Below are positions 1 through 39,793 of a stretch of DNA of 41,422 nucleotides, in pieces. Within the stretch, counting starts at the first letter, position 1; the number at the start of each line of letters is the position of its first letter. The notes under the pieces are model-generated. The model searched no databases. It had not been told where the DNA came from and was given only the letters and a program-made list of their open reading frames with translations. A program made the translations under genes and the position numbers. Origin of the DNA: an uncultured bacterium (lineage in GTDB: Bacteria > Vulcanimicrobiota > JAJTBE01 > CAZSLZ01); assembly GCA_964607865.1 (NCBI GenBank), contig CAZSLZ010000008.1, forward strand, positions 1-41,422, written 5' to 3'.

Positions 1-264
1 CACTCCGCTGCCGCCAATGGCAGCGTGGAAACCCTCCTGTATTTGCTGGATAAGGGTTTTGAAGTTGATGTAAAAAGCAGGGATGGCGTAACGCCTTTGC
101 ATAAAGCTGCGGAGCTGGGCCAGTTGGAAACGGCAGAAATTCTGATCGAGAAAGGCGCCCAGGTAAGCGCAAAAACCGATGCGGGTAAGACTCCCCTGGA
201 CTTTGCCAGAGAGGGAAACCATACCTCTATGGTGAAATTTCTGGAAGAAAAAATGAAGAAATAG
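1..264 (+). CDS. Ankyrin-repeat protein, C-terminal fragment; the gene starts upstream of the window
   Basis: Frame 1 is open from nucleotide 1. The translation HSAAANGSVETLLYLLDKGFEVDVKSRDGVTPLHKAAELGQLETAEILIEKGAQVSAKTDAGKTPLDFA has the typical ANK repeat consensus (TPLHxAAxxGhxexvxxLLxxGA). The stop is TAG at 262-264. Confidence 0.7.
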   Translation, partial: HSAAANGSVETLLYLLDKGFEVDVKSRDGVTPLHKAAELGQLETAEILIEKGAQVSAKTDAGKTPLDFAREGNHTSMVKFLEEKMKK

Positions 265-520: not shown

Positions 521-621
521 ATTGAGGTTGTATCATCCAGTAAATAAAAACAAAAAAGAAACCGTCATATCAATATTTTTCGAATGACGGTTTCTTTTAG
601 TTTTATTAAGATATATGGGTA

Positions 622-1413
622 TTATCCATTCAGGACCATTATAGCTTTGGGGTTTGTAACTCTCAAAGCCAGGCTTTCCGAGATGGTGAATTCCACCTGA
701 TCTTCGGCAGGGCCGGTGAAGCCTATGAACATATCCTGACCCAGCACTATGGAAACATACTGTTCGCCAGAAGCCAACAATACACCGCCTTTTTTAAGTA
801 CGGGGGCTTTGTAAATTCCATCGGTTACGATGGTTTTGAGATGTTCCATTTCGGTACCATGCCCCCGGGGATAACGCCGATACAACTGATTGTATCTTTC
901 CGGTGATAATGCCATGGTATAGGGGCCATGGAATCCGGCCTCATCGAGTTTGGTAACAGCATTTATTATATCGTTGGCAGCTGCTCCCACATCTTCCCAT
1001 TTCATAAGGGACACCTTATTGGCTCCCTTGATATTCAGCAGTCCGGAAGCATTCTTTTTGCCATTGAATATTATATCATCTTCACTCCGGGCGCACCAGA
1101 TTGCAGCTTCACTTACGGAGCTGGTATCCAGGGGGACGCCTTCGTGTTCGAATGCTGCCAGGTCTCTCTTATTGAGGGTAAAGTTGCGGTTAATGTATAG
1201 AACCGGAAGTACGGAAGACATGGAAATACCTTCTTCAATCTCTTCATCTTTAAGAGGAACCACTTTCAAGCCCAGTCCGTAAGGGCCCTTGACTTTCAGC
1301 AGTTTTCTGCCCACCATCTGGCTTTTTGCCGATTCTATCATAACGTTATCAATAAGATGCCAGGCTTTATTATCAAAAAAGGCATCATCACGTGTCAAAT
1401 ATTTATTTGCCAT
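622..1413 (-). CDS. Encapsulin nanocompartment shell protein (family 1, linocin M18-like)
   Basis: The translation MANKYLTRDDAFFDNKAWHLIDNVM...GRKLLKVKGPYGLGLKVVPL...ALRVTNPKAIMVLNG aligns along its whole length with T. maritima-type encapsulin (GRKFVDVEGPYGWEY...TFQVVNPEALILLKF). I chose the start at ATG 1413, which has a GGAGG RBS 8 nt upstream. The 298-aa ORF in the supplied track carries a spurious N-terminal extension that overlaps the upstream gene. Confidence 0.85.
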   Translation of the reverse strand: MANKYLTRDDAFFDNKAWHLIDNVMIESAKSQMVGRKLLKVKGPYGLGLKVVPLKDEEIEEGISMSSVLPVLYINRNFTLNKRDLAAFEHEGVPLDTSSVSEAAIWCARSEDDIIFNGKKNASGLLNIKGANKVSLMKWEDVGAAANDIINAVTKLDEAGFHGPYTMALSPERYNQLYRRYPRGHGTEMEHLKTIVTDGIYKAPVLKKGGVLLASGEQYVSIVLGQDMFIGFTGPAEDQVEFTISESLALRVTNPKAIMVLNG

Positions 1414-1415
1414 TA

Positions 1416-1766
1416 TTATTCCTCCTTCAAAGAACCGATTGAACTCTCTGATTCTATCCTGGAGGCGTTCAGTTCTTCCATCATTTCGTTTACTTCTTCT
1501 ATTCCGTTGTTCAGCCACTTATCTTCATCGCCGGTCAGGACTTGAAGCAACCTCTGGAACTCGCCCACGTGCTCTCTTTCTTCATTGGCAACATCGATGA
1601 GGACTTTTTTTGCCAGGGGGTGATCGGTGGCGTCGGCGTGGGCCATATAAAGATGAATAGCTTCCTCCTCTGCAGCCACGTTCAACCTGATTGCTCTTAC
1701 GAGCTCTTCTTTAGTCAGTTTTCTTTCCGGAACTTTGCCAGAAAATGGGTTTACAAATTCAGGCAT
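1416..1766 (-). CDS. Ferritin-like/rubrerythrin-like encapsulin cargo protein (EncFtn-type) with a C-terminal targeting peptide
   Basis: The 116-aa protein has ferritin-like motifs (EEEAIHLY...EEREHVGEF, i.e. paired E..H and ExxH). Its C-terminus SESSIGSLKEE resembles the encapsulin cargo-loading peptide consensus (..SIGSLK..). It sits immediately upstream of the shell gene, with a 2-nt gap between the stop and the shell start. An AAGGAGG RBS precedes it. Confidence 0.75.
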   Translation of the reverse strand: MPEFVNPFSGKVPERKLTKEELVRAIRLNVAAEEEAIHLYMAHADATDHPLAKKVLIDVANEEREHVGEFQRLLQVLTGDEDKWLNNGIEEVNEMMEELNASRIESESSIGSLKEE

Positions 1767-1853
1767 AGTTTCCTCCTTTCATAGTTCAGCTTCGTTCTTT
1801 GTATTGCCTGTTTTTCCAGAAACGGAAGCTTTGATTATTTTCTTAATTTAAAA

Positions 1854-1881
1854 CAATAATAACCTTTAAAGGTTATTATTG
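1854..1881 (-). terminator. Perfect 11-bp inverted repeat caataataacc-tttaaa-ggttattattg, followed on the minus strand by a T-rich stretch
   Basis: The palindrome is visible directly in the sequence. It lies 8 nt after the end of the 94-aa coiled-coil gene and separates that gene from the encapsulin operon. Confidence 0.4.
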
Positions 1882-1888
1882 ATATATC

Positions 1889-2173
1889 TTATTTGGTTTT
1901 TGCATGGGTTTCTTCTTCGATATGGTTCAAAGCGTCTTTATATGCAATTTTCAAATCATCAATAGCTATATTCAGGCCTCTCTTCATATCGTCGGCAGCC
2001 TTGCCGCTCTGTTCTTTCAGTTTGTCAGCCTTAATCTGGGTTTCTTCAAATTTGTTTTTCAGTTCTTTTAGTTGTTGCTGTAACTCAACTTTGGCATCCC
2101 GGGAAAGGGATTCACCTTTCCGAGTCAATTCGTCAAGTTTTCTGCCAAAATCCTTGAGTTTCTGTTCCATCAT
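1889..2173 (-). CDS. Small coiled-coil protein, paralog 1 of 3
   Basis: The 94-aa protein is heptad-rich (KLDELTRK...QQQLKELKNKFEETQIKADKLKEQ). Its C-terminal motif SGKAADDMKRGLNIAIDDLKIAYKDAL is shared with the next two genes. An AGGGGG RBS lies upstream. Confidence 0.5.
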   Translation of the reverse strand: MMEQKLKDFGRKLDELTRKGESLSRDAKVELQQQLKELKNKFEETQIKADKLKEQSGKAADDMKRGLNIAIDDLKIAYKDALNHIEEETHAKTK

Positions 2174-2176
2174 AAT

Positions 2177-2491
2177 TCATGCCCCCTTGTTAGCGAAAGA
2201 TTTTTGAACAGCTTCATCTTCCTGCTCCCGCGCTTTTATAACATCATTCAGCGCCGAGGTATAGGAAAGTTTCAGTTTTTCAATAGCTGATGTAGCCTGA
2301 GGTTTCAAGGTATCCCACTTTTTACCGGTTACATTTTTCATTTCCTGGATCCGTTTCTCAGCTTCTACATATTTGTTATGAATATCTTCGAGTTTCTCTC
2401 TGAATTTCTGGTTATCCATGTCGTATTTTTCGCTTTCTGCGATAAGTTTGTCTATTTTTTCCCGATAATCACGCAATATTTCTTCTAACAT
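2177..2491 (-). CDS. Small coiled-coil protein, paralog 2 of 3
   Basis: It carries the motif TGKKWDTLKPQATSAIEKLKLSYTSAL. I chose the start at ATG 2491 (MLEEIL...) because an AGGTGG SD lies 8 nt upstream. The ORF in the track begins 12 nt earlier, at a GTG. Confidence 0.5.
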   Translation of the reverse strand: MLEEILRDYREKIDKLIAESEKYDMDNQKFREKLEDIHNKYVEAEKRIQEMKNVTGKKWDTLKPQATSAIEKLKLSYTSALNDVIKAREQEDEAVQKSFANKGA

Positions 2492-2507
2492 TTTTTTCAC
2501 CACCTGT

Positions 2508-3095
2508 TTATTCTGTTTTGGTTTCTGATTCAGTGGTTGTTTCTTTTTCTTCCGCAGGTTTATCAGCGTGTTTTTCTTTCATAGTTTCCTTGTCGCCGGA
2601 AACTTCTTTATCCATTGTCTGATATTCTTTATCTAGTTCTTCCATTGATTTCTGGACGTTCATTTTTGCCTTTTCCCAGGCTTCGCCAGTGGATTCCTGC
2701 ATCTTTTCAAGATTGTTGCCAATCTCTTTCTGCTGTTCTTTTAGAGCATCCAACTGAGGCTGAATTTCCTTCTGGGTTTCTTCGGAAGTTTCAGCTAACT
2801 GTTTTTCCATTTTGTTAATATTTTCACCCATCTTATCCAGTTCTTTATTGGCGGCTTCATAATATTCTTCGCTTTGTGCTTCAGTATAAGCTGCCAATGC
2901 AACCAGCGCTTCGCTTGTCTGTTCCTTTACCTCTTCAGCAGTTGGGGGTTCGGTTTCTGCAGGTGGTTCCATGGGTGTTTCCTCAACAACAGGGCTTTCT
3001 GCAGGGGTTTCGGGTTTCTGTTTCTGGGCGCAGGATGCAAAAATCATCAGGGCAAAAACTAAAACCAATGCAATTATAATTTTGTGTTTTTTCAT
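2508..3095 (-). CDS. Coiled-coil lipoprotein, paralog 3 of 3
   Basis: The lipoprotein signal peptide is MKKHKIIIALVLVFALMIFASC. The acidic coiled-coil region carries the motif TGEAWEKAKMNVQKSMEELDKEYQ. An AAAGGAG RBS lies upstream. Confidence 0.55.
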   Translation of the reverse strand: MKKHKIIIALVLVFALMIFASCAQKQKPETPAESPVVEETPMEPPAETEPPTAEEVKEQTSEALVALAAYTEAQSEEYYEAANKELDKMGENINKMEKQLAETSEETQKEIQPQLDALKEQQKEIGNNLEKMQESTGEAWEKAKMNVQKSMEELDKEYQTMDKEVSGDKETMKEKHADKPAEEKETTTESETKTE

Positions 3096-3130: not shown

Positions 3131-3796
3131 TTATTTTTTTACTAATAAATCATTATTAACCAATACAACACCAGGGGTAAACATTGTAATTTCTTCAGCG
3201 ATGTTTTTCTGGTATTTTTTCAAAACTGTGCCACTCAGGGTAACTTCACCGTTATCAACAGTAATTTGAATATTTGATGTATCAATATCCCTGGCTCTGT
3301 TCAAGGAACCGGATATTTTTTGGGCTATGGTTCTGTCTTGTAATTCTCTGCTGGGAACCACGGTAAGATTGTTCTGAATGCTGTTTACACCGTAAATACC
3401 CGAAATTTTCTTCTCAATTTCAGGCACTTTCCAATAAGAATCCACAACCCCTTTTAACTGAACATTACCGCCTTCAACTGAAACTTCCAAATACCGTTCA
3501 TCGAACCGGGTATCCCACGAAAGTGAATTTTCTATATGTTTTCTTATTTTCTCATCTTCAGGAATTTTCCTACCATGTTGGTAATTTATCTTCAGTTTAT
3601 TATTAATCACCATATTGCTGTCGGCAGATTTAATAATTTCAAGCACGGTTCTGAAATCATTGAAGCTGGGGACTTCTCCCTCAAGGGTAATGCTCCCCTC
3701 CTGAATTTTCATTCGAATATCTTTTTCATCTATCCGGGGGTCTTTTTTGAGTTCTTCATAAATATTTGTTTTAAGATTTTCATCCATTACAATCAT
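3131..3796 (-). CDS. BON-domain (OsmY-like) protein with three BON repeats
   Basis: Triplicated segments have the BON signature (IxVxVxxGxVTLxGxV...). Examples are ITLEGEVPSFNDFRTVLEII, VQLKGVVDSYWKVPEIEK and VTLSGTVLKKYQKNIAEEI. Confidence 0.7.
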   Translation of the reverse strand: MIVMDENLKTNIYEELKKDPRIDEKDIRMKIQEGSITLEGEVPSFNDFRTVLEIIKSADSNMVINNKLKINYQHGRKIPEDEKIRKHIENSLSWDTRFDERYLEVSVEGGNVQLKGVVDSYWKVPEIEKKISGIYGVNSIQNNLTVVPSRELQDRTIAQKISGSLNRARDIDTSNIQITVDNGEVTLSGTVLKKYQKNIAEEITMFTPGVVLVNNDLLVKK

Positions 3797-3799
3797 GCT

Positions 3800-4288
3800 T
3801 TACACTTCCAATTCATTTTTGGCTTTCAGGGGTTCCTGTATGGTAAGAACCGGGCGGGTAGCCAGTCGAATTACCTTTTCTGCCACCGAACCGAATATGA
3901 ATCTTCCCCATCCGCTGTGGCCATGGGTTGCAATTATGATAAGATCGACATCAGCTTCATCGGCCTTTTCCACTATTTCCTTGGCGGTATCACCCTGAAC
4001 CACCACGGCGATTGTCTTGTTTTTATTGGTTACATACTTTTTTCTGACTTCATCTAGCTTTTTTTTCGCCATTTTTTTTAATTCCAGCTGATAGGAAGGC
4101 ACATCAAAGGGTGTGGGTACGGGGGCTGCCGGAGAATAAGTGGCAGGAGCAATAGGAACCACATCGGTCACGTTAAGCAGAATTAACTGGGCATCAAAAT
4201 GCACCGCCAATTCATCGGCAGCTTTGAGAGCTTCCAAAGAAGGTTCACTGAAATCGATGGGGCATAATATTTTCTTAAAAGGAACCAT
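3800..4288 (-). CDS. Universal stress protein (UspA family)
   Basis: The sequence KKILCPIDFSEPSLEALKAADELA...LIIIATHGHSGWGRFIFGSVAEKVIRLATRPVLTIQ is a canonical Usp fold, with the ATP-binding G-x2-G-x9-G(S/T) region. A GAGGT RBS lies upstream. Confidence 0.8.
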   Translation of the reverse strand: MVPFKKILCPIDFSEPSLEALKAADELAVHFDAQLILLNVTDVVPIAPATYSPAAPVPTPFDVPSYQLELKKMAKKKLDEVRKKYVTNKNKTIAVVVQGDTAKEIVEKADEADVDLIIIATHGHSGWGRFIFGSVAEKVIRLATRPVLTIQEPLKAKNELEV

Positions 4289-4308
4289 TTTCTACCTCAA
4301 ATTTAAAA

Positions 4309-4998
4309 TTAAACACTGGCTTTCACGTATTGGGGAGCTTCGATTTTCAACTCGTTGTGAACGAAAGTAACACCCTTGGTAAGCAATGCAACCTGAAAAG
4401 CCTGCTGGGCAAGGTTTTTTGAAGGTAAAATGCCAGACAGTGTTACAACTCCGTTTTCCACTTCCACATCGACCAGATCGGAATCATCGCCGATGTTTCT
4501 TGCCAGGGCTGAAGTAATGTCATTGGCAATGGCCTGGTCTATTATGTCATGGGTGGGGACCACTGCCAGGTTGTTGGTAATGCCCACTATACCTTCAATT
4601 CCTGAGGCCAGGTCTTCTATTCTTAAAACTTTCCAATACTCATCCTGGGTACCTTCAAATGTAACCCAGCCATCCTTAACCGATATCTTGACGCTCACAG
4701 AATCAATATAGGTATCCCATTCCAATATCTGCTTTATATTATTCTTCAACTCACTGTCAGTGGGAAGATTGGTTTTACCCTCGTGGGTAACCTCCAGGTT
4801 GTTTATTACCATTTCCACTCCTGAAACATCCCAGGCATCCTGAAAGGCAGAGGTGCGGGCCAGATAATTATCGACTGTCCCGTTCAATGTGACTACAAAA
4901 TCTTTTACCTTTACGTCAATATTGGTGGAATCCACCCGGTTATCCCAGAATAATTGTTCTACAATATCTTTTTTTACTCTTTCGTCGGTTATTGCCAT
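4309..4998 (-). CDS. BON-domain protein with three BON repeats
   Basis: BON repeats are VVTLNGTVDNYLARTSAF, VTFEGTQDEYWKVLRIEDLA and VVTLSGILPSKNLAQQAFQV. The start is taken at ATG 4998 (MAITDER), which has an AAGGAG 10 nt upstream. The track ORF starts 30 nt earlier and has no SD. Confidence 0.65.
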   Translation of the reverse strand: MAITDERVKKDIVEQLFWDNRVDSTNIDVKVKDFVVTLNGTVDNYLARTSAFQDAWDVSGVEMVINNLEVTHEGKTNLPTDSELKNNIKQILEWDTYIDSVSVKISVKDGWVTFEGTQDEYWKVLRIEDLASGIEGIVGITNNLAVVPTHDIIDQAIANDITSALARNIGDDSDLVDVEVENGVVTLSGILPSKNLAQQAFQVALLTKGVTFVHNELKIEAPQYVKASV

Positions 4999-5279
4999 CC
5001 AACTCACTCCTTGCAAAATAGAATTCAATATTTACAACAGCATGAAAAAATAAAAGTTTCTTTTATGATTTTACTGAATTTTCAGAACCCGGGATGTTAG
5101 TTGGTTTGTTGAGATTATTTGATGATGATGTACAGAGATGCAATTTTAGAAAAACTTTTTCCAGCTTTTAAAGAACATAAAAGTAAGCCAGTTAAAGAAG
5201 CAAAAGACAGCATTGTTGCCTTAATTTAGAAGGATATAAGCTGAAGAAAAAAATATATATTAATATGAGGGAGTATGAT

Positions 5280-6839
5280 ATGTCCCAATTGCACAGGGCC
5301 GTTCTGGATGAAGATATTGAAGAGCTGGTTCACATTCTGGATAAGAATTCCAATGTTAACCTCTTTAATGTTAATAAATTAACTCCCCTTCACCTGGCTG
5401 TTTACCGGGATAATTTAGAGGCCACCAGAATTCTGCTGGCAAAAAACGCAAATTGCAATCTTTCTGATATAGATGGATTTACCCCCCTGGCAAGGGCTGT
5501 GGAGAAAGGTCATTCGGAAACAATCAAGATGGTTTACCAGAACCGTGATGATCTGAATTTCGGAGATAAAAACAACAGAACTTTATTACATATAGCGGTG
5601 GAAAAAAACCATGCTGAAATCGCCAGGCTGCTCTCCGAGCTGATGGGAGAATTAGATATTCCCGATGGCCAGGGAATAACCCCTCTGCAGAGGGCAATAA
5701 TGAACAGCCAGGCAGAACCAGGATGGTTCCTGGTCCCCGGATGCCAATTATCTTCAGCCGACACCTGGGGCAAGATACAGGGGGGCAAGGTGCCTGTTAT
5801 CGCCTATATAGTATGGGCTCTGGCGGAATCCGGTTATACCGGGCCTTCCCTCAACAAGGGAATTGGCTATATCAAAAAAAATATCGGCCAGTTTGAAGAC
5901 CCCTACGTTCTGGCTCTGGTTACCAACGCTCTGGCAACCATGGAACCTGAAAACCAGTTAACAAGAGAATTATTGGAAAAACTGAAGTCCAAGGCTGAAT
6001 TTACCAAAGACTCGGCATACTGGACACCTGGAGTGGCGACTGCAACTTATAGCACGGGCAGCAGCGCCAATATGGAAACCACTGCCATGGCAGCTTTGGC
6101 ATTCATGAAAGTAGAGGGTTATGAAGAGCTGGCAAACAAAGCTGTGAGTTATTTAGTTCAGAGCAAGGATTCCTTTGGGACCTGGTATTCAACCAAGAGT
6201 ACGGTTCTGGCGATGAAAGCTCTGTTAACTGCCCAGGAAAAAGCTGGTAAAAGTGTGGATGCCAGGGTAGAAATCATGGTTAACGGCGAAGCCAGCGAAA
6301 CATTCCAGATTGATTCAGAAAATTATGAACTTTTCCGCCAGGCTGATTTCAGCCATATAACCAGGCAGGGTTCCAATACTGTTGAAGGCAAGGGCGCCTG
6401 TTTCTACCAGGTAACCGCCCGGCATTATATACCCTGGAAACTGGCGAAACAGAATAAACATCTGGCAATTGAGGTAAAATACGACAGGACCCAGTTAAAA
6501 ACTGATGATCTCCTGACTTCTACTGTGACTGTAAAAAACAATACAAAAGCAGCCATGAAAATGGTAATGGTGGACCTGGGAATTCCTCCGGGATTTACCG
6601 TAATGACCCCTGACCAGGGTGAGTATGTGGGCGGAAAATTCCAGAAATACAATATGACTTCAAGGCAAATGATAATTTATGTTGATACCCTGAAAGCCGG
6701 CGAGGATTTAAAATTCAAGTACCGGCTGAAAGCCAGGTACCCCTTGCGGGCTAAGACTCCGGAAAGCAAAGCTTACCAGTATTACAACCCTGGCGTGGAA
6801 GACAAAGCCCAGCCAGTGACCCTGGATGTGAAGGAATAA
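5280..6839 (+). CDS. Fusion of N-terminal ankyrin repeats to an alpha-2-macroglobulin-like C-terminal half (TED + MG8 + receptor-binding-like domains); no signal peptide and no CxEQ thioester
   Basis: The N-terminus carries three or four ANK repeats (TPLHLAVYRDNLEATRILLAKNA, TPLARAVEKGHSETI, TLLHIAVEKNHAEIARLL). The central region matches the A2M/C3d thioester-domain toroid: YIVWALAESG, METTAMAALAFMKV and FGTWYSTKSTVLAMKALLTAQEKA (compare C3 [21 protein letters not shown]). The C-terminal end is GKGACFYQVTARHYIP...GFTVMTPDQGEYVGGKFQKYNMTSRQMIIYV, like A2M MG8/RBD. The thioester position reads VPGCQLSS, not GCGEQ. The start is ATG 5280, with a GAGGGAG 5 nt upstream. Confidence 0.65.
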   Translation: MSQLHRAVLDEDIEELVHILDKNSNVNLFNVNKLTPLHLAVYRDNLEATRILLAKNANCNLSDIDGFTPLARAVEKGHSETIKMVYQNRDDLNFGDKNNRTLLHIAVEKNHAEIARLLSELMGELDIPDGQGITPLQRAIMNSQAEPGWFLVPGCQLSSADTWGKIQGGKVPVIAYIVWALAESGYTGPSLNKGIGYIKKNIGQFEDPYVLALVTNALATMEPENQLTRELLEKLKSKAEFTKDSAYWTPGVATATYSTGSSANMETTAMAALAFMKVEGYEELANKAVSYLVQSKDSFGTWYSTKSTVLAMKALLTAQEKAGKSVDARVEIMVNGEASETFQIDSENYELFRQADFSHITRQGSNTVEGKGACFYQVTARHYIPWKLAKQNKHLAIEVKYDRTQLKTDDLLTSTVTVKNNTKAAMKMVMVDLGIPPGFTVMTPDQGEYVGGKFQKYNMTSRQMIIYVDTLKAGEDLKFKYRLKARYPLRAKTPESKAYQYYNPGVEDKAQPVTLDVKE

Positions 6840-7116: not shown

Positions 7117-8391
7117 ATGAAGATAACAGAAAAAATAGGGGAACCTTTTAAAAAGCTTTTTGCAATGCCCTGGCTGGCAAAAATGGTTTTGTTCTTATCT
7201 ATTATGGGGCCGGGGCTTATCACGGCCAATGTAGATAACGATGCCAACGGCATCGCCACCTATTCGGTGGCGGGGGCAAGTTTTGGCTATTCTATGATAT
7301 GGGTTCTATTCGTGGTGGTTTTTTTTCAGGGCCTGGTTCAGGAAATGACTGCCCGGCTGGGATGCATTACCGGCAAGGGCTTGTCGGACCTGATCAGAGA
7401 AAACTTCGGGGTAAAGGTTACTGTTTACCTCATGTTTATCCTTTTTCTGGCAAATTTTGCCAACGTTATAGGCAATTTTGCAGGTATCGCCGCCGGTGCT
7501 GAATTGTTTAATATTCCCCGTTTTGTGTCAATTCCACTGGGGGCTTTGTTTGTATGGTTCCTTGTGGTAAAAGGATCCTATGAACGAACTGAAAAAATTT
7601 TTCTGTGGGCATGCCTTATCTACCTCACCTACATCGCATCGGGCCTTATGGCGAAACCCGACTGGGGAAAAATCGCAGATTCCACTATTCATCCCCAGGT
7701 AAGTTTTGACAGAAACTACATCTATATGGTAATCGCCATAGTGGGAAGCACCATCGCCCCCTGGATGCAATTTTTTCAGCAGTCCGCCATTAGAGATAAA
7801 CAGGTGGATGAAAAGAATTATGTTTATGTAAGATGGGATACATATATCGGTACCATCGCCATGGCTATAGTCAGTTTTTTTATTATAGTAGCCTGCGCCG
7901 CCACCCTCCACGTTCAGGGAATCAAGATTGAAAGCGCCGAACAGGCCGCTCTGGCGCTTGCCCCACTGGCAGGCAAATATGCCAGTATCCTCTTCGGGGT
8001 GGGGCTTCTTAACGCAGCAATTTTTTCCACAGCTATCATTCCCATTTCCACCTCCTACGCCATCTGCGAATCATTTGGCTGGGAATCAGGAATGGGAAAA
8101 AGCTTCAAGGAAGCTCCGGTTTTTCTGGGTATCTATACCTTCATGATTGTGGCAGGCTCTTTTATTCTTATGATACCGGGAATACCCCTTATTCCCATTA
8201 TGGTTCTTTCCCAGGCGTTAAATGGAATTCTGCTGCCATTCATTCTTATTATTATTATGAAACTGATTAACGATAAAAGGCTGATGGGCAAATGGACCAA
8301 CTCGCTGGTTTTTAATATTCTTGCCTGGATCACCACTATCGTTATTTCTATTCTTTCCGTCATCCTCATTGTTATGACTTTTCAGGCATAA
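7117..8391 (+). CDS. Nramp-family divalent cation transporter, probably of the NRMT (Mg2+-selective) type
   Basis: There are eleven or twelve TMs. The TM1 motif GPGLITANVDNDANGIATYSVAGASFGY aligns with E. coli MntH [28 protein letters not shown], except that DPGN is replaced by DANG. The TM6 sequence AIVGSTIAPW replaces the GATVMPH motif, so the conserved Met is an Ala. Confidence 0.75.
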   Translation: MKITEKIGEPFKKLFAMPWLAKMVLFLSIMGPGLITANVDNDANGIATYSVAGASFGYSMIWVLFVVVFFQGLVQEMTARLGCITGKGLSDLIRENFGVKVTVYLMFILFLANFANVIGNFAGIAAGAELFNIPRFVSIPLGALFVWFLVVKGSYERTEKIFLWACLIYLTYIASGLMAKPDWGKIADSTIHPQVSFDRNYIYMVIAIVGSTIAPWMQFFQQSAIRDKQVDEKNYVYVRWDTYIGTIAMAIVSFFIIVACAATLHVQGIKIESAEQAALALAPLAGKYASILFGVGLLNAAIFSTAIIPISTSYAICESFGWESGMGKSFKEAPVFLGIYTFMIVAGSFILMIPGIPLIPIMVLSQALNGILLPFILIIIMKLINDKRLMGKWTNSLVFNILAWITTIVISILSVILIVMTFQA

Positions 8392-19268: not shown

Positions 19269-20402
19269 ATGATTGTAAATAAACTTGAGTTAAATAATTT
19301 TAGAAATTTGAAACCTGCCAGCCTGGAGTTTTCACCGGGCTTTAACCTTATCATAGGAAAAAACGCCCAAGGCAAATCGAGTTTCCTGGAAGCTCTCTAT
19401 TCTTTGAGCCTGGGCAGATCTTACAGGACCAATAAAGAGGAGAATATAATAAATTTTGACAGCAGTTTTGCCAGGGTGGCGGGCAGTTTTGCTGTGGGTG
19501 GTCTGGCTTTTTCCCTGGAGATCCAATGGGAAAAACCTGAATCGACCAGGCTGAATAAGACAATTAAATTGAATTCCAACCCGGTTACCCGGCTTTCCGA
19601 CTTCATAGCCCGGTCGCCTATGGTACTGTTTCTGGCTGAAGATCTTGAAATAATAAGGGGAGCGCCTGAAAACCGCCGAAAACTGCTGGACCTAATCTGC
19701 AGCAGGCTGAAACCTGTATATGCCTCTACATTAAGGGAATACAATAAAATTCTGGATCTTAGAAACCGCTGGTTGAAATTGCCCGAAAGAAACAGGGACA
19801 AATATATGGGTGAAATTTACTCGGAAAAACTGATTTCTCTGGGTGCCGAGATTCTGTGTCATCGTTTTCAGGCTCTGGAATCGCTGAGAAAAATTATGAC
19901 TCAAATTTTTATTGATTTATTCAAACAGGATATGCCCAAACTGGGATATCGTTCATCGGTAAAGGAGTTTAAAAACCGGGAGCCCGAATCACTGAAGGAA
20001 GCTTTCAGCGATGCACTGCAAAGGCTGGAGCAAAGCGAAAATAAAGTGGGTTATACCTTGGCAGGCCCTCATCGCGATGATATAGTATTTAAGAAAGACG
20101 GCAAAAGAATCAGAAATTTCGGTTCCCTGGGAGAGATTCGCGGGGTGTCGGTGGTTCTGAAACTGGCGGAAGCTGAGATTATCAGCCAGCAAATGGATAT
20201 CGAACCGGTAATTTTGATTGATGACAGCCTCAGGGAACTGGATCCTTCCAGGGTAGATCTTTTTATTAATTTTATTAAGGCCAAAAAACAAATTTTTTTT
20301 GCAGCCACCGAAATTCCAGAATTCTTCAAGAATCATGGTTCCAGAACCAGGCTTTTTAACGTAAGCGAGGGGGTTATTTCAAATGCAACCCATGTCTATT
20401 AA
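19269..20402 (+). CDS. recF: DNA replication and repair protein RecF
   Basis: The N-terminus MIVNKLELNNFRNLKPASLEFSPGFNLIIGKNAQGKSSFLEALYSL has the RecF start and Walker A. The C-terminal ABC signature and D-loop region is GPHRDDIVF...ILIDD. Confidence 0.85.
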   Translation: MIVNKLELNNFRNLKPASLEFSPGFNLIIGKNAQGKSSFLEALYSLSLGRSYRTNKEENIINFDSSFARVAGSFAVGGLAFSLEIQWEKPESTRLNKTIKLNSNPVTRLSDFIARSPMVLFLAEDLEIIRGAPENRRKLLDLICSRLKPVYASTLREYNKILDLRNRWLKLPERNRDKYMGEIYSEKLISLGAEILCHRFQALESLRKIMTQIFIDLFKQDMPKLGYRSSVKEFKNREPESLKEAFSDALQRLEQSENKVGYTLAGPHRDDIVFKKDGKRIRNFGSLGEIRGVSVVLKLAEAEIISQQMDIEPVILIDDSLRELDPSRVDLFINFIKAKKQIFFAATEIPEFFKNHGSRTRLFNVSEGVISNATHVY

Positions 20403-21267
20403 AAGTGTTTTGAAGCGGACAATGAAGAAGCTTGACCTTTATGAAATTTATAAAAACAATCGTTCCATCACATTCTGGCCCCGAATATGTGGAAAACAAT
20501 TGAACCAGGTCACACAGGCTTTAAAATTGAGAGGCAAGATTCTTTTTGTGGGTGTGAAAGATCATATCTGGGCAACGGAGTTGAGCGGTTTCAAATATCA
20601 GTTTTTAAAAAAGTTTAATAAGTTGCTTGGTACGGGGATAGTAGAAGATATAAGGTTTCAGGTAAACCCTTCGCTTTTCAGAAAGACAGAAGAAAATGAA
20701 CCCGTTGTCTATGAGTTCCAGGAGATTGAATTATCAGCCAGAGATGAAGAAGAAATTGAAAATGAAATTTGCCTGATAGAAGATGAAAAAACCCGGCAAA
20801 TGATGAGAAAATTTCTTGAGGGTAAAAAGAAATATGAAAAATGGCTGAAAAAAAGGGGGGGTAAACCTTGTCCCAACTGCGGGGCAATGATAGAAAAAGA
20901 TGAACCTTTGTGCCCTCCCTGTATCATTGATAGACAAGGCCAGGACAGCCAGAAACTTGTTGAGATATTAAACCAGACCCCCTGGCTTGATTTCAGAGAA
21001 TCAAAGAAACAATTGAGTACTCTGGATTTCCATCTATATTGCATGGTAAGAGACAGCCTGGTGGAAGGCCTGAAGAATGAGGTCTATGATGCTCTGAAAA
21101 ACATTAAAGCCCGGGAAAACAACATAGATACGGCCGATTTGAAAACCCGTATTATCACTTTTGCCATGATGAAATCCGGGATGCCCCCCGCCAGAATGAC
21201 TGATGACAACCTGAAAAAAATCCTGCCTTTCTCTTTCTACAAATATTATCAGGAAGAAACTTATTAA
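20383..21267 (+). CDS. DUF721 (DciA-like) protein with a C-terminal CxxC...CPPC zinc-ribbon extension
   Basis: It overlaps recF by 20 nt. The N-terminal DUF721 pattern is LKRTMKKLDLYEIY...WPRICGKQLNQVTQALKLRGKILFVGVKDHIWATELSGFKYQFLKKFN. The C-terminus has CPNCGAMIEKDEPLCPPC. A GAGGGGG RBS lies upstream. Confidence 0.6.
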   Translation: MQPMSIKSVLKRTMKKLDLYEIYKNNRSITFWPRICGKQLNQVTQALKLRGKILFVGVKDHIWATELSGFKYQFLKKFNKLLGTGIVEDIRFQVNPSLFRKTEENEPVVYEFQEIELSARDEEEIENEICLIEDEKTRQMMRKFLEGKKKYEKWLKKRGGKPCPNCGAMIEKDEPLCPPCIIDRQGQDSQKLVEILNQTPWLDFRESKKQLSTLDFHLYCMVRDSLVEGLKNEVYDALKNIKARENNIDTADLKTRIITFAMMKSGMPPARMTDDNLKKILPFSFYKYYQEETY

Positions 21268-33686: not shown

Positions 33687-34622
33687 ATGTCAGGAGAATT
33701 CACAAAAGCACAGAATATGATAAGGTTGTTAATGGTTATTATGAGAAACCCAAAAATCACGCCCACAGAGGTGATGGATTATCTTTCCATTAGTAAAGAC
33801 CAATATTACAGGTATTTCAATGAATTGACCCATTTGCTGCCAATATATTATGACAGGGAAAAGAGAAGTTATGAAATAAATAACCTGGCAGATTTACCCG
33901 ATTTGATTGAAGATTCGAATAAACTTTATTCTCTGCTTCTGGTACTGCATTTGCTGGATGCTACCAAGGTTGAAAACCCCCGTAATTTTCAGCAGTTGAA
34001 GAAAATGATGGGAATAAGCCCGGAGATTGAATCAATATTCAAATATTGTGTGGGGGTTGAAAGGTTTCCTCATCACGAAGAATTTTTAGATAAGTTGGCT
34101 GAGATATATAAGGCTATCTTTTTTAAACGGATAATCACTTTTTCTTATTCCAAACAGAAAGAGGTTATCGAAAAAATTGAATTGGAACCTTACCGGCTGG
34201 TTCATGACCGTGACTGGTATGTGAGAGGATATAACCCTTACAAGAAAGAGAAGAGAACATACAAAATAAGCCGGATGAAAAATGTGGAAATTACTCAAGA
34301 TAGTTTTAATATGCCCGCAGAAGTTGAAGTTTCGGTGATTAATACCCCCTGGGATTTTGAAAACACATGTACTCAAGAGGTGGAGATTCTCTTCGATAGT
34401 TCACTGGAGCAATATTTAAACGAACAGCATTTTCACCCCAGCCAGAAACTGGAAGAGACCAGAGATGGAAATATTTTATTCAAAGTTGTAGTTAAAACAC
34501 CGGAGCATATGATTCCCTGGATTATTTCCCATCGAAAACTGGCAAGAATCATTAAGCCTGAATGGTTAAAAGATAAGTTATTGGAAGAACTGGATAAAAT
34601 CAAGGGTGTATATACAAAATAA
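33687..34622 (+). CDS. WYL-domain transcriptional regulator (HTH-WYL-WCX architecture)
   Basis: The N-terminal wHTH is MIRLLMVIMRNPKITPTEVMDYLSISKDQYYRYFNEL. The WYL domain is KIITFSYSKQKEVIEKIELEPYRLVHDRDWYVRGYNPYKKEKRTYKISRM. A C-terminal WCX-like extension follows. Confidence 0.7.
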   Translation: MSGEFTKAQNMIRLLMVIMRNPKITPTEVMDYLSISKDQYYRYFNELTHLLPIYYDREKRSYEINNLADLPDLIEDSNKLYSLLLVLHLLDATKVENPRNFQQLKKMMGISPEIESIFKYCVGVERFPHHEEFLDKLAEIYKAIFFKRIITFSYSKQKEVIEKIELEPYRLVHDRDWYVRGYNPYKKEKRTYKISRMKNVEITQDSFNMPAEVEVSVINTPWDFENTCTQEVEILFDSSLEQYLNEQHFHPSQKLEETRDGNILFKVVVKTPEHMIPWIISHRKLARIIKPEWLKDKLLEELDKIKGVYTK

Positions 34623-39457: not shown

Positions 39458-39793
39458 TTAAACCCAGATTGCCAGAAAAGCCATGAGGGCGAGTCCCAGG
39501 GTGGCCAGTGTAAATTTGGCCCATTTATCGGCGGGGTCTATGAATTCCCGATGAAAGCTCTCCAATAATGCCACATACAGAAAGGTGCCTGCCGCCAGGG
39601 TATCAAAAAGTTGATGACCAGTGTCTGGGTATTGCCTGACAGAAGGCTTACCAGGGTTGCACCCAGCAGGATTCCCATGGGGGTCATTAATGAAAAGAAA
39701 ATGATGGTATTGAAAATCCTTTTTTTTATCAATTCCTGCCCTGAACAGGTTGACTCCCAGAGCGAAAGCCGCTGCCCCCTTATGAACAATCAA
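39458..39793 (-). pseudogene. Frameshifted 3' remnant of a ZIP-family (ZupT-like) metal transporter gene
   Basis: Two overlapping minus-strand frames each carry ZIP C-terminal signatures: NTIIFFSLMTPMGILLGATLVSLL (39538-39789 frame) and LFDTLAAGTFLYVALLESF...LGLALMAFLAIWV (39458-39793 frame). No N-terminal half, start or RBS is present. Confidence 0.5.

Follow-up and report, generated by a model that had tools for sequence, protein, structure and literature searches.

Encapsulins that package ferroxidase cargos are a known, textbook type of nanocompartment, and several Flp/EncFtn encapsulins have solved structures and measured activities. In Myxococcus xanthus, the family 1 shell protein EncA, which is T=3 when loaded, takes up EncB and EncC among several cargos, some of which are encoded elsewhere. 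In the EncFtn encapsulins of Rhodospirillum rubrum, Haliangium ochraceum, and Thermotoga maritima (family 1, T=1, about 24 nm), the system consists of two genes, with the cargo upstream of a shell protein of 264–266 amino acids (aa). In the Flp-fusion encapsulin of Pyrococcus furiosus (PfV, T=3), the shell protein itself carries the ferritin-like domain as an N-terminal fusion. The EncFtn monomer comprises two long helices and a C-terminal helix, and a four-helix bundle with a di-iron site exists only at the dimer interface within an open decamer (He et al., PMC5012862). The protein oxidizes iron and cannot store it, the shell being required for storage (PMC5012862; PMC8346489). Here, we studied a pair of minus-strand genes at positions 622–1766 of contig CAZSLZ010000008.1 (GenBank assembly GCA_964607865.1), which belongs to a metagenome-assembled genome (MAG) of an uncultured bacterium of the Vulcanimicrobiota; the window referred to below is the whole stretch of 41,422 nt that was analyzed. 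An original prediction, made from the sequence without database searches, had read the pair as an operon of an encapsulin and its ferritin-like cargo. Profile searches, matches to solved structures, predicted folds, and the conservation of residues, targeting peptide, and gene pair all support that central reading, and the locus is very probably an operon of two genes for a family 1 (classical) encapsulin with a cargo of the Flp/EncFtn type (the “FLP-TP” class), whose shell is already named in the public record.

The assignment of the shell protein draws on several signals, beginning with hidden Markov models (HMMs). Pfam Linocin_M18 (PF04454) is matched over shell residues 4–249 (E-value 4.8e-73; 246 bits against a cutoff of 24.3), with profile positions 2–253 of 253 covered, and NCBIfam NF041155 (encap_f1), an equivalog model titled “family 1 encapsulin nanocompartment shell protein,” is matched at 237.1 bits against a cutoff of 100, with positions 1–261 of 261 covered. 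The encapsulin HK97-fold profile on which the original prediction had staked its linocin M18-type shell is thus matched over its full length and above the cutoffs. Among solved structures, 37 distinct encapsulin sequences in the PDB match the shell protein; the best is M. xanthus EncA (E-value 2.6e-38), followed by the shells of Dendrosporobacter quercicolus (7e-38), Quasibacillus thermotolerans (4.5e-35), and T. maritima (1e-23), and, more distantly, H. ochraceum (1.5e-19) and the mycobacterial T=1 shells (about 1e-14). The AlphaFold2 model, for which 62 homologues were used (predicted local distance difference test, pLDDT, 88.2; predicted template-modeling score, pTM, 0.84), has an N-terminal helix at residues 15–30 and a beta-hairpin at residues 52–69, at the position of the E-loop. 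Every one of the top 50 Foldseek matches of this model in the PDB is a family 1 encapsulin shell or an engineered version of one, and template-modeling (TM) scores to solved encapsulin shells are 0.77–0.88 (TMq). Sequence models, the HK97 fold with its A-domain, P-domain, E-loop, and N-terminal helix, and an adjacent cargo that carries a targeting peptide therefore all place the protein among family 1 shells, and NCBI gives the identical protein the name of a family 1 encapsulin shell.

Because the HK97 fold is shared with phage capsids, it is no surprise that the protein also draws weak matches to Pfam Major_capside (27.5 bits; cutoff 26.8) and Phage_capsid (21 bits, below cutoff), from which the gene could be taken for an HK97-type major capsid gene left over from a decayed prophage. 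We consider this extremely improbable: the protein scores 237 bits with the equivalog model specific to encapsulins, has the N-terminal helix, and is paired with a dedicated cargo that bears a targeting peptide. Further, Pfam scans of 44 open reading frames (ORFs) across the 41-kb window revealed no portal, terminase, protease, or tail genes, and the prophage reading was rejected in view of a window free of phage structural and packaging genes.

The extent of the shell gene required correction. A mechanical ORF call at 622..1518 (298 aa) begins with GTG at 1518 and overlaps the cargo gene in another frame, and no in-frame ATG occurs between 1518 and 1413. Shell residues M1, N3, and K4, counted from an ATG at 1413, are invariant across the 62 homologues, nearly all of which are 258–265 aa long; the motif AAGGAGG precedes this ATG by 7 nt; and an NCBI entry consists of exactly the same 263-aa protein. 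For these reasons the comparison puts the true shell start at 1413, and the 298-aa call should become 263 aa. The original prediction had proposed the same trimming and was right to do so, although it blamed an upstream in-frame ATG where the longer frame in fact starts with GTG. Both genes lie at the coordinates that it had given, on the minus strand, and the 2-nt gap that it gave between them is confirmed by the cargo stop codon (TAA, 1418–1416) and the shell ATG (1413–1411).

The cargo protein matches NCBIfam NF058679 (EncB_fam), titled “encapsulin nanocompartment ferritin-like cargo protein,” at 120.8 bits against a cutoff of 90 and over positions 1–117 of 117, as do the M. xanthus cargos. 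Its nearest matches in the PDB are M. xanthus EncC (7s8t; E-value 2.4e-16) and P. furiosus EncFtn (5n5e; 9e-14). When a 60-sequence profile of the cargo was used, EncC was found at an E-value of 9e-20, in an alignment that reaches the very end of the proteins and pairs TIGSLK with TVGSLR, and the EncFtn proteins of H. ochraceum and R. rubrum were found at 0.03–0.19 only. The AlphaFold2 model of the cargo (pLDDT 89.1) has helices at residues 19–46, 50–78, and 81–111 and a tail of low confidence. EncFtn structures make up the top 50 Foldseek matches throughout, and TMt values of 0.80–0.91 to EncC, EncB, and P. furiosus EncFtn show that the model has the fold of an EncFtn monomer; the EncFtn domain of 5n5e is its best structural match (TMt 0.82, 40% identity). 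The original prediction had named the lack of a four-helix-bundle ferroxidase site in a structure prediction as evidence against itself. That test was mis-specified, since the model is a hairpin plus a C-terminal helix and the bundle arises on dimerization; a genuine EncFtn would fail it, because the bundle forms only between two monomers.

Conservation within the cargo is concentrated in the residues expected of a ferroxidase. E33, E35, H38, Y40, E62, E63, H66, and E69 are invariant in 60 cargo homologues, as are two ExxH motifs, E35-A-I-H38 and E63-R-E-H66. The ferroxidase ligands E33, E63, and H66, together with Y40, are present and invariant in the same homologues and align with those of EncC and P. 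furiosus EncFtn. From this alignment and a one-residue offset, they would correspond to E32, E62, H65, and Y39 of R. rubrum EncFtn, mutation of which impairs ferroxidase activity (PMC11202242). Similarity to EncC extends to an N-terminal NPF..P.RK..T segment, to the E/Y/EEREH ferroxidase motifs, and to the type of tail (SIGSLK here, TVGSLR in M. xanthus), and similarity to the R. rubrum-type proteins includes the two-helix fold, equivalent ferroxidase positions, and the ferroxidase center that, in the known proteins, lies at the dimer interface. Unlike the M. xanthus system, to which the shell is only about 30% and the cargo about 44% identical, this locus has one adjacent cargo gene. In contrast to P. 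furiosus, whose shell also aligns with the C-terminal half of the shell studied here, the ferritin-like protein is a separate gene product with a C-terminal peptide.

The cargo ends in SESSIGSLKEE, and the proposal that this is a cargo-loading peptide is well supported by comparison with homologues and by the alignment with EncC TVGSLR. Of the 120 best cargo homologues, about 105 have T[IV]GSL[KR] plus 0–3 residues as their C-terminus; among the tail columns, G111 is invariant, and T109 and S112 are conserved at 90% or more. The linker before the tail varies among homologues from 0 to 30 residues (acidic, Gly, or Ala) and is also variable in composition, in keeping with the definition of the class, a disordered linker of about 10–40 aa before a conserved targeting peptide (PMC11202242). 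In this protein the linker is about 11 residues long, much shorter than in the M. xanthus system, and model confidence over residues 101–116 is low (pLDDT 50–66). The same tail closes unrelated, longer cargos beside other shells (loci L007, L010, and L012). When every ORF in the window was examined for a C-terminus resembling a targeting peptide, the 116-aa cargo was the sole protein to have one, and no second cargo was found.

The remaining homologues in the set of 120, about 15 in number (P0132, P0135, P0140, P0155, P0156, P0172, and others), are 98–104 aa long and have neither linker nor tail; they are 80–91% identical over the core and fit the “s-FLP” class (PMC11202242). Their existence leaves room for the view that the cargo is a free cytosolic protein of the rubrerythrin or ferritin type, encoded beside a shell gene and bearing its C-terminal motif by coincidence, a view to which the NCBI name, merely “ferritin family protein,” and Pfam lend some color. 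Rubrerythrin, just reached at 26.3 bits, is the sole Pfam match above threshold, with COQ7 and Mn_catalase as weak matches. Such mixed labels are the scatter described by Andreas and Giessen for Flp cargos, one functional class of ferroxidases that is spread over several Pfam labels (PMC8346489). Against coincidence, the tail is retained in about 105 of 120 homologues despite a freely varying linker and recurs on unrelated cargos beside other shells, the gene adjoins a shell gene in phyla of both bacteria and archaea, and the above-cutoff match to EncB_fam is to a family of encapsulin cargos. We regard a free ferritin as very unlikely.

No observation contradicts the reading of the locus as an EncFtn-type encapsulin operon, but it has a few weak points. 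First, the cargo falls below the cutoffs of both Pfam EncFtn-like (19 vs 27 bits) and TIGR04535 (81.3 vs 125 bits), and its sequence relation to the R. rubrum, H. ochraceum, and T. maritima systems is distant. These scores indicate a branch other than that of the R. rubrum prototype; judged from sequence, the cargo sits in the EncB/EncC/P. furiosus branch, and the “EncFtn-type” label of the original prediction holds for a ferritin-like encapsulin cargo with E/H motifs but not for membership of the R. rubrum-type branch. Second, the D38 of EncA that contacts the targeting peptide aligns with K40 here (by manual count, in the numbering of PMC10402063), so that details of docking may differ from those in M. 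xanthus EncA. Third, a sigma-70 scan recognized no promoter in the spacer of 122 nt that lies upstream of the cargo; the sites found elsewhere fall in coding sequence, at a frequency not above that in shuffled sequence. Finally, the neighboring sll1863-family, BON-domain, and Usp genes suggest general or osmotic stress rather than iron specifically.

How the encapsulin would work can be outlined from its characterized relatives, which are our guide to its assembly and loading, its ferroxidase activity and mineral storage, and the size of its shell. The 263-aa HK97-fold protein is predicted to self-assemble into a closed icosahedral shell that encloses the cargo. During assembly, the SIGSLK segment of the cargo would dock in a pocket that the N-terminal helix forms with the P-domain on the inner face of the shell, as the M. 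xanthus peptide EKRLTVGSLR is seen by cryo-electron microscopy to be bound in the pocket of the EncA P-domain and N-helix (PMC10402063). The cargo would dimerize around a di-iron ferroxidase center, with E33, E63, and H66 contributed by each chain and Y40 nearby, and form ring-shaped decamers. We expect these to be metal-dependent D5 decamers with ferroxidase activity and no storage capacity of their own, as is known for the R. rubrum, H. ochraceum, P. furiosus, and M. xanthus proteins (PMC5012862, PMC11202242). Fe2+ would enter through the shell pores and be oxidized, and the Fe3+ mineral would stay inside the shell.

The size of such a shell is a more delicate matter, and the evidence from sequence similarity does not point the same way as that from length and from the model. 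The particle of about 24 nm given in the original prediction was a guess, the nearest solved shells by sequence being those with T=3 or T=4. The same system could build a larger shell, T=3 (about 32 nm, 180-mer) or T=4: the best solved matches (EncA, D. quercicolus, and Q. thermotolerans) are T=3/T=4 shells, the T=1 matches from T. maritima and mycobacteria are weaker, the nearest solved relatives of the cargo (EncC and P. furiosus EncFtn) come from T=3 systems, and the short shell part of the P. furiosus protein still builds a T=3 particle (PMC8346489). On the other side, the aligned span is 17–18 residues below those of EncA, Q. thermotolerans, and Bacillus methanolicus, with the deficit in the E-loop region, and only 4 residues below those of the T=1 shells of T. 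maritima, H. ochraceum, and Mycobacterium tuberculosis; a link between T number and E-loop conformation is described in the review literature (PMC11202242). Likewise, the root-mean-square deviation (rmsd) of the model is 2.9–3.6 Å to protomers in the T=1 state (7kq5, 7odw, 8v4n, 9b9i, and 7s21) and 4.1–6.2 Å to most full-length T=3/T=4 protomers, 9fy6_C/D and 8rvj being the exceptions. The rmsd trend is weak, and Foldseek TM scores of 0.77–0.88 apply to T=1 and T=3/T=4 protomers alike, with no separation. Moreover, EncA itself is able to form T=1 and T=3 shells (PMC10402063), so sequence alone cannot fix T. On balance, the trends in length and in the modeled rmsd weakly indicate a T=1 shell of about 24 nm as somewhat more likely, and the larger shell keeps an appreciable though lesser share of our belief.

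The gene pair is conserved well beyond this genome. In eight of 15 genome loci found with the shell protein, a gene for an EncC-like protein ends 12–50 nt before the shell start; four of the eight are from Methanoregula/Methanomicrobiales, and one each is from Dehalococcoidaceae, Armatimonadia, Thermotalea, and Thermohalobacter. The order of cargo followed by shell thus recurs across bacterial and archaeal phyla, Firmicutes included. The closest metagenomic relative has a shell that is 63% identical, the same 2-nt gap, and a cargo ending in TIGSLKEE. Overall, the closest relatives are uncharacterized pairs of a 263-aa shell and an EncC-like cargo from Chloroflexota (Anaerolineae and Dehalococcoidia) and Methanoregula, in which the shell is 55–63% and the cargo 58–81% identical and lengths, gene order, and the TIGSLK tail are alike. 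The closest genome-derived relatives of the shell (55–58% identity) belong to Methanoregula/Methanomicrobiales archaea and to Dehalococcoidia (L001–L003 and L006), and the presence of archaea among them points to transfer of the encapsulin operon between domains.

Several of these related pairs lie in large oxidative-stress islands of anaerobes, in place of which the pair studied here is accompanied by sll1863-family, BON-domain, and Usp genes. Relatives that are about 60% identical (P0041 and P0006) are found mid-way in such islands. In loci L017–L020, related pairs occur within conserved islands of about 12 kb, in which a Fur/PerR-like regulator and rubredoxin, an NADH:rubredoxin-oxidoreductase-like flavoprotein, rubrerythrin, ferritin, and desulfoferrodoxin are followed by the EncFtn-shell pair, Ferritin_2, a flavodiiron protein, glutaredoxin, ferredoxin-thioredoxin reductase, nitroreductase, OsmC, and rubrerythrin. 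To judge from these islands, the encapsulin is a regular component of an oxidative-stress regulon in anaerobes. The product of the Ferritin_2 gene just downstream of the shell in these relatives was checked for a targeting tail and has none.

The likely role of the compartment is iron detoxification or storage in a stress response, with the stress probably oxidative. The islands of the approximately 60% identical relatives support a role in iron detoxification under oxygen or peroxide stress, and a dual role in storage and stress has been proposed for Flp encapsulins (PMC8346489). A stronger version, for which we would put the chances only slightly below even, is that the compartment serves mainly as an oxidative-stress defense of an oxygen-sensitive organism rather than as an iron reserve, removing Fenton-active Fe2+ and consuming O2 or H2O2 at the ferroxidase site. 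In its favor are the placement of homologues in anaerobe islands for defense against reactive oxygen species that are headed by a Fur/PerR-family regulator, the co-directional stress cluster (two BON, one Usp, and three sll1863-family genes) that the pair follows here, and a literature that allows the dual role (PMC8346489). However, storage does not exclude defense, neither a Fur/PerR gene nor a corresponding box was identified beside the pair, the set of neighbors seen here is not kept around related encapsulins, and a hairpin lies between the pair and the stress genes.

The coordinates of the features discussed are collected in the table. With hairpins standing both upstream of the cargo and after the shell, the pair has the appearance of a compact, separate transcription unit. 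The hairpin past the shell stop has a folding energy of −24.5 kcal/mol (z-score −7.6), and none of 200 shuffled sequences folds as well. A consensus terminator scan missed it, presumably because the scan requires a contiguous stem and a loop of 3–8 nt; by eye, it has perfect 12-bp arms around about 15 nt. The hairpin in the spacer before the cargo probably ends transcription of the sll1863-family gene upstream, which would leave the encapsulin pair to be transcribed by itself, and read-through from the genes upstream of the pair may occur. Since the Shine-Dalgarno sequence of the shell is embedded in the last codons of the cargo, the two genes may be translationally coupled.

Table. Features of the encapsulin locus; positions are those of the window, and all features lie on the minus strand
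Feature	Positions	Strand	Basis or remark
Intrinsic-terminator-like hairpin with U-run, from 18 nt past shell stop	547..604	minus	RNA fold
Shell gene, 263 aa, family 1 encapsulin (HK97-fold)	622..1413	minus	ATG at 1413, stop at 622
Cargo gene, 116 aa, ATG start	1416..1766	minus	ends ...SESSIGSLKEE
Targeting (cargo-loading) peptide SSIGSLKEE	1419..1445	minus	C-terminal cargo end; conservation in homologues
Shine-Dalgarno AAGGAGG of shell, within last cargo codons (K-E-E), 7 nt before shell ATG	1421..1427	minus	sequence reading
Short acidic linker, cargo residues 97–107	1446..1478	minus	variable in homologues; low pLDDT
Ferritin-like core, cargo residues 19–96	1479..1712	minus	predicted ferroxidase residues E33, E63, H66, Y40; pLDDT 92–99
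Shine-Dalgarno AGGAGG of cargo, 5 nt before cargo ATG	1772..1777	minus	sequence reading
12-bp A+T-rich hairpin followed by UUUU, in 122-nt spacer upstream of cargo	1854..1881	minus	terminator scan and folding

The neighborhood of the pair was also part of the earlier interpretation, according to which a cluster of BON, Usp, and coiled-coil stress genes adjoins the encapsulin. Six co-directional stress genes do precede the pair, with two BON-domain genes and one Usp gene as described (BON-Usp-BON, 3131–5028), while the “coiled-coil” genes at 1889–3095 (−) are three tandem sll1863-family paralogues of 94, 108, and 195 aa, spaced 3–4 nt apart and downstream of the BON-Usp-BON genes. On NCBIfam NF052504 (cutoff 35), the paralogues score 58.2, 34.6, and 47.3 bits, the middle one just short of the cutoff; the third, of 195 aa, has an N-terminal lipoprotein-like signal. 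When sll1863, BON, Usp, ankyrin/TED, and Nramp proteins were sought by tblastn beside related encapsulins in the 15 genome loci, the result was one weak Usp match, in L004. The association with the stress cluster is therefore local and not a feature of the encapsulin system.

A wider metal and oxidative-stress theme had been suggested on the strength of an NRMT-type transporter and a ZIP remnant elsewhere in the window. Both genes are there, and the theme is weak, since the Nramp protein has a near-complete Mg-type signature, the ZIP fragment is 38 kb away, and the stress genes are not conserved near related encapsulins. The Nramp-family gene at 7117–8391 (+) scores 334 bits with Pfam and 143 bits with the MntH subfamily model, against a cutoff of 430. 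Its helix 1 has DANG (a DxxG pattern, not DPGN), and its helix 6 has S-T-I-A-P-W in place of the classical A/CxxM-P-H. As the signature of Mg2+-type NRMT proteins is DxxG, TxxA/T, and His to Trp (PMC8806188), the protein has a near-complete signature of this type, with Ser for Thr, and not that of transition-metal transporters; the earlier “NRMT-type” label was reasonable, and the transporter argues against a link to iron. The ZIP fragment at 39458–39793 (−), 111 aa with a TTG start, matches only positions 213–323 of a 323-position ZIP profile. Its N-terminal two thirds are missing and would not fit in, as the next gene on the opposite strand starts 180 nt from the fragment. A frameshifted ZIP gene was considered and rejected: an overlapping 83-aa ORF has no Pfam match, and the stretch up to the next gene contains three stops in one minus-strand frame. 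By its sequence, the fragment is either a truncated remnant or a mis-assembled piece.

The significance of the locus beyond correct annotation is small. The neighboring “ferritin family protein” can be re-labeled as an encapsulin cargo, and the 298-aa gene call can be cut to 263 aa. The relatives of this clade that lie in anaerobe oxidative-stress islands supply a physiological context for iron and oxygen stress in uncultured Vulcanimicrobiota, Chloroflexota, and Methanoregula. A bolder proposal, which we think rather unlikely, is that Methanoregula, Chloroflexota, and this Vulcanimicrobiota MAG share an unstudied clade of 263-aa shells that by sequence is nearest to the T=3/T=4 shells and has an E-loop region about 17 residues shorter, and that the pair studied here perhaps joined a regulon for general or osmotic stress (sll1863/BON/Usp) rather than the PerR-type oxidative-stress islands of its relatives. 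Were the clade to build T=1 particles, it would stand beside the large shells as their naturally “E-loop-trimmed” relative and might reveal how shell size is set.

Other genes in the window are recorded here for completeness. A WYL-WCX regulator with no obvious partner is encoded at 33687–34622 (+), and a RecF-like ATPase followed by an overlapping DciA-domain protein at 19269–21267 (+). A 524-aa protein encoded at 5265–6839 (+) combines N-terminal ankyrin repeats with alpha-2-macroglobulin TED and receptor-binding/MG10-like domains, an unusual architecture, and a second ankyrin-repeat ORF is located at 25–264 (+), near the start of the window.

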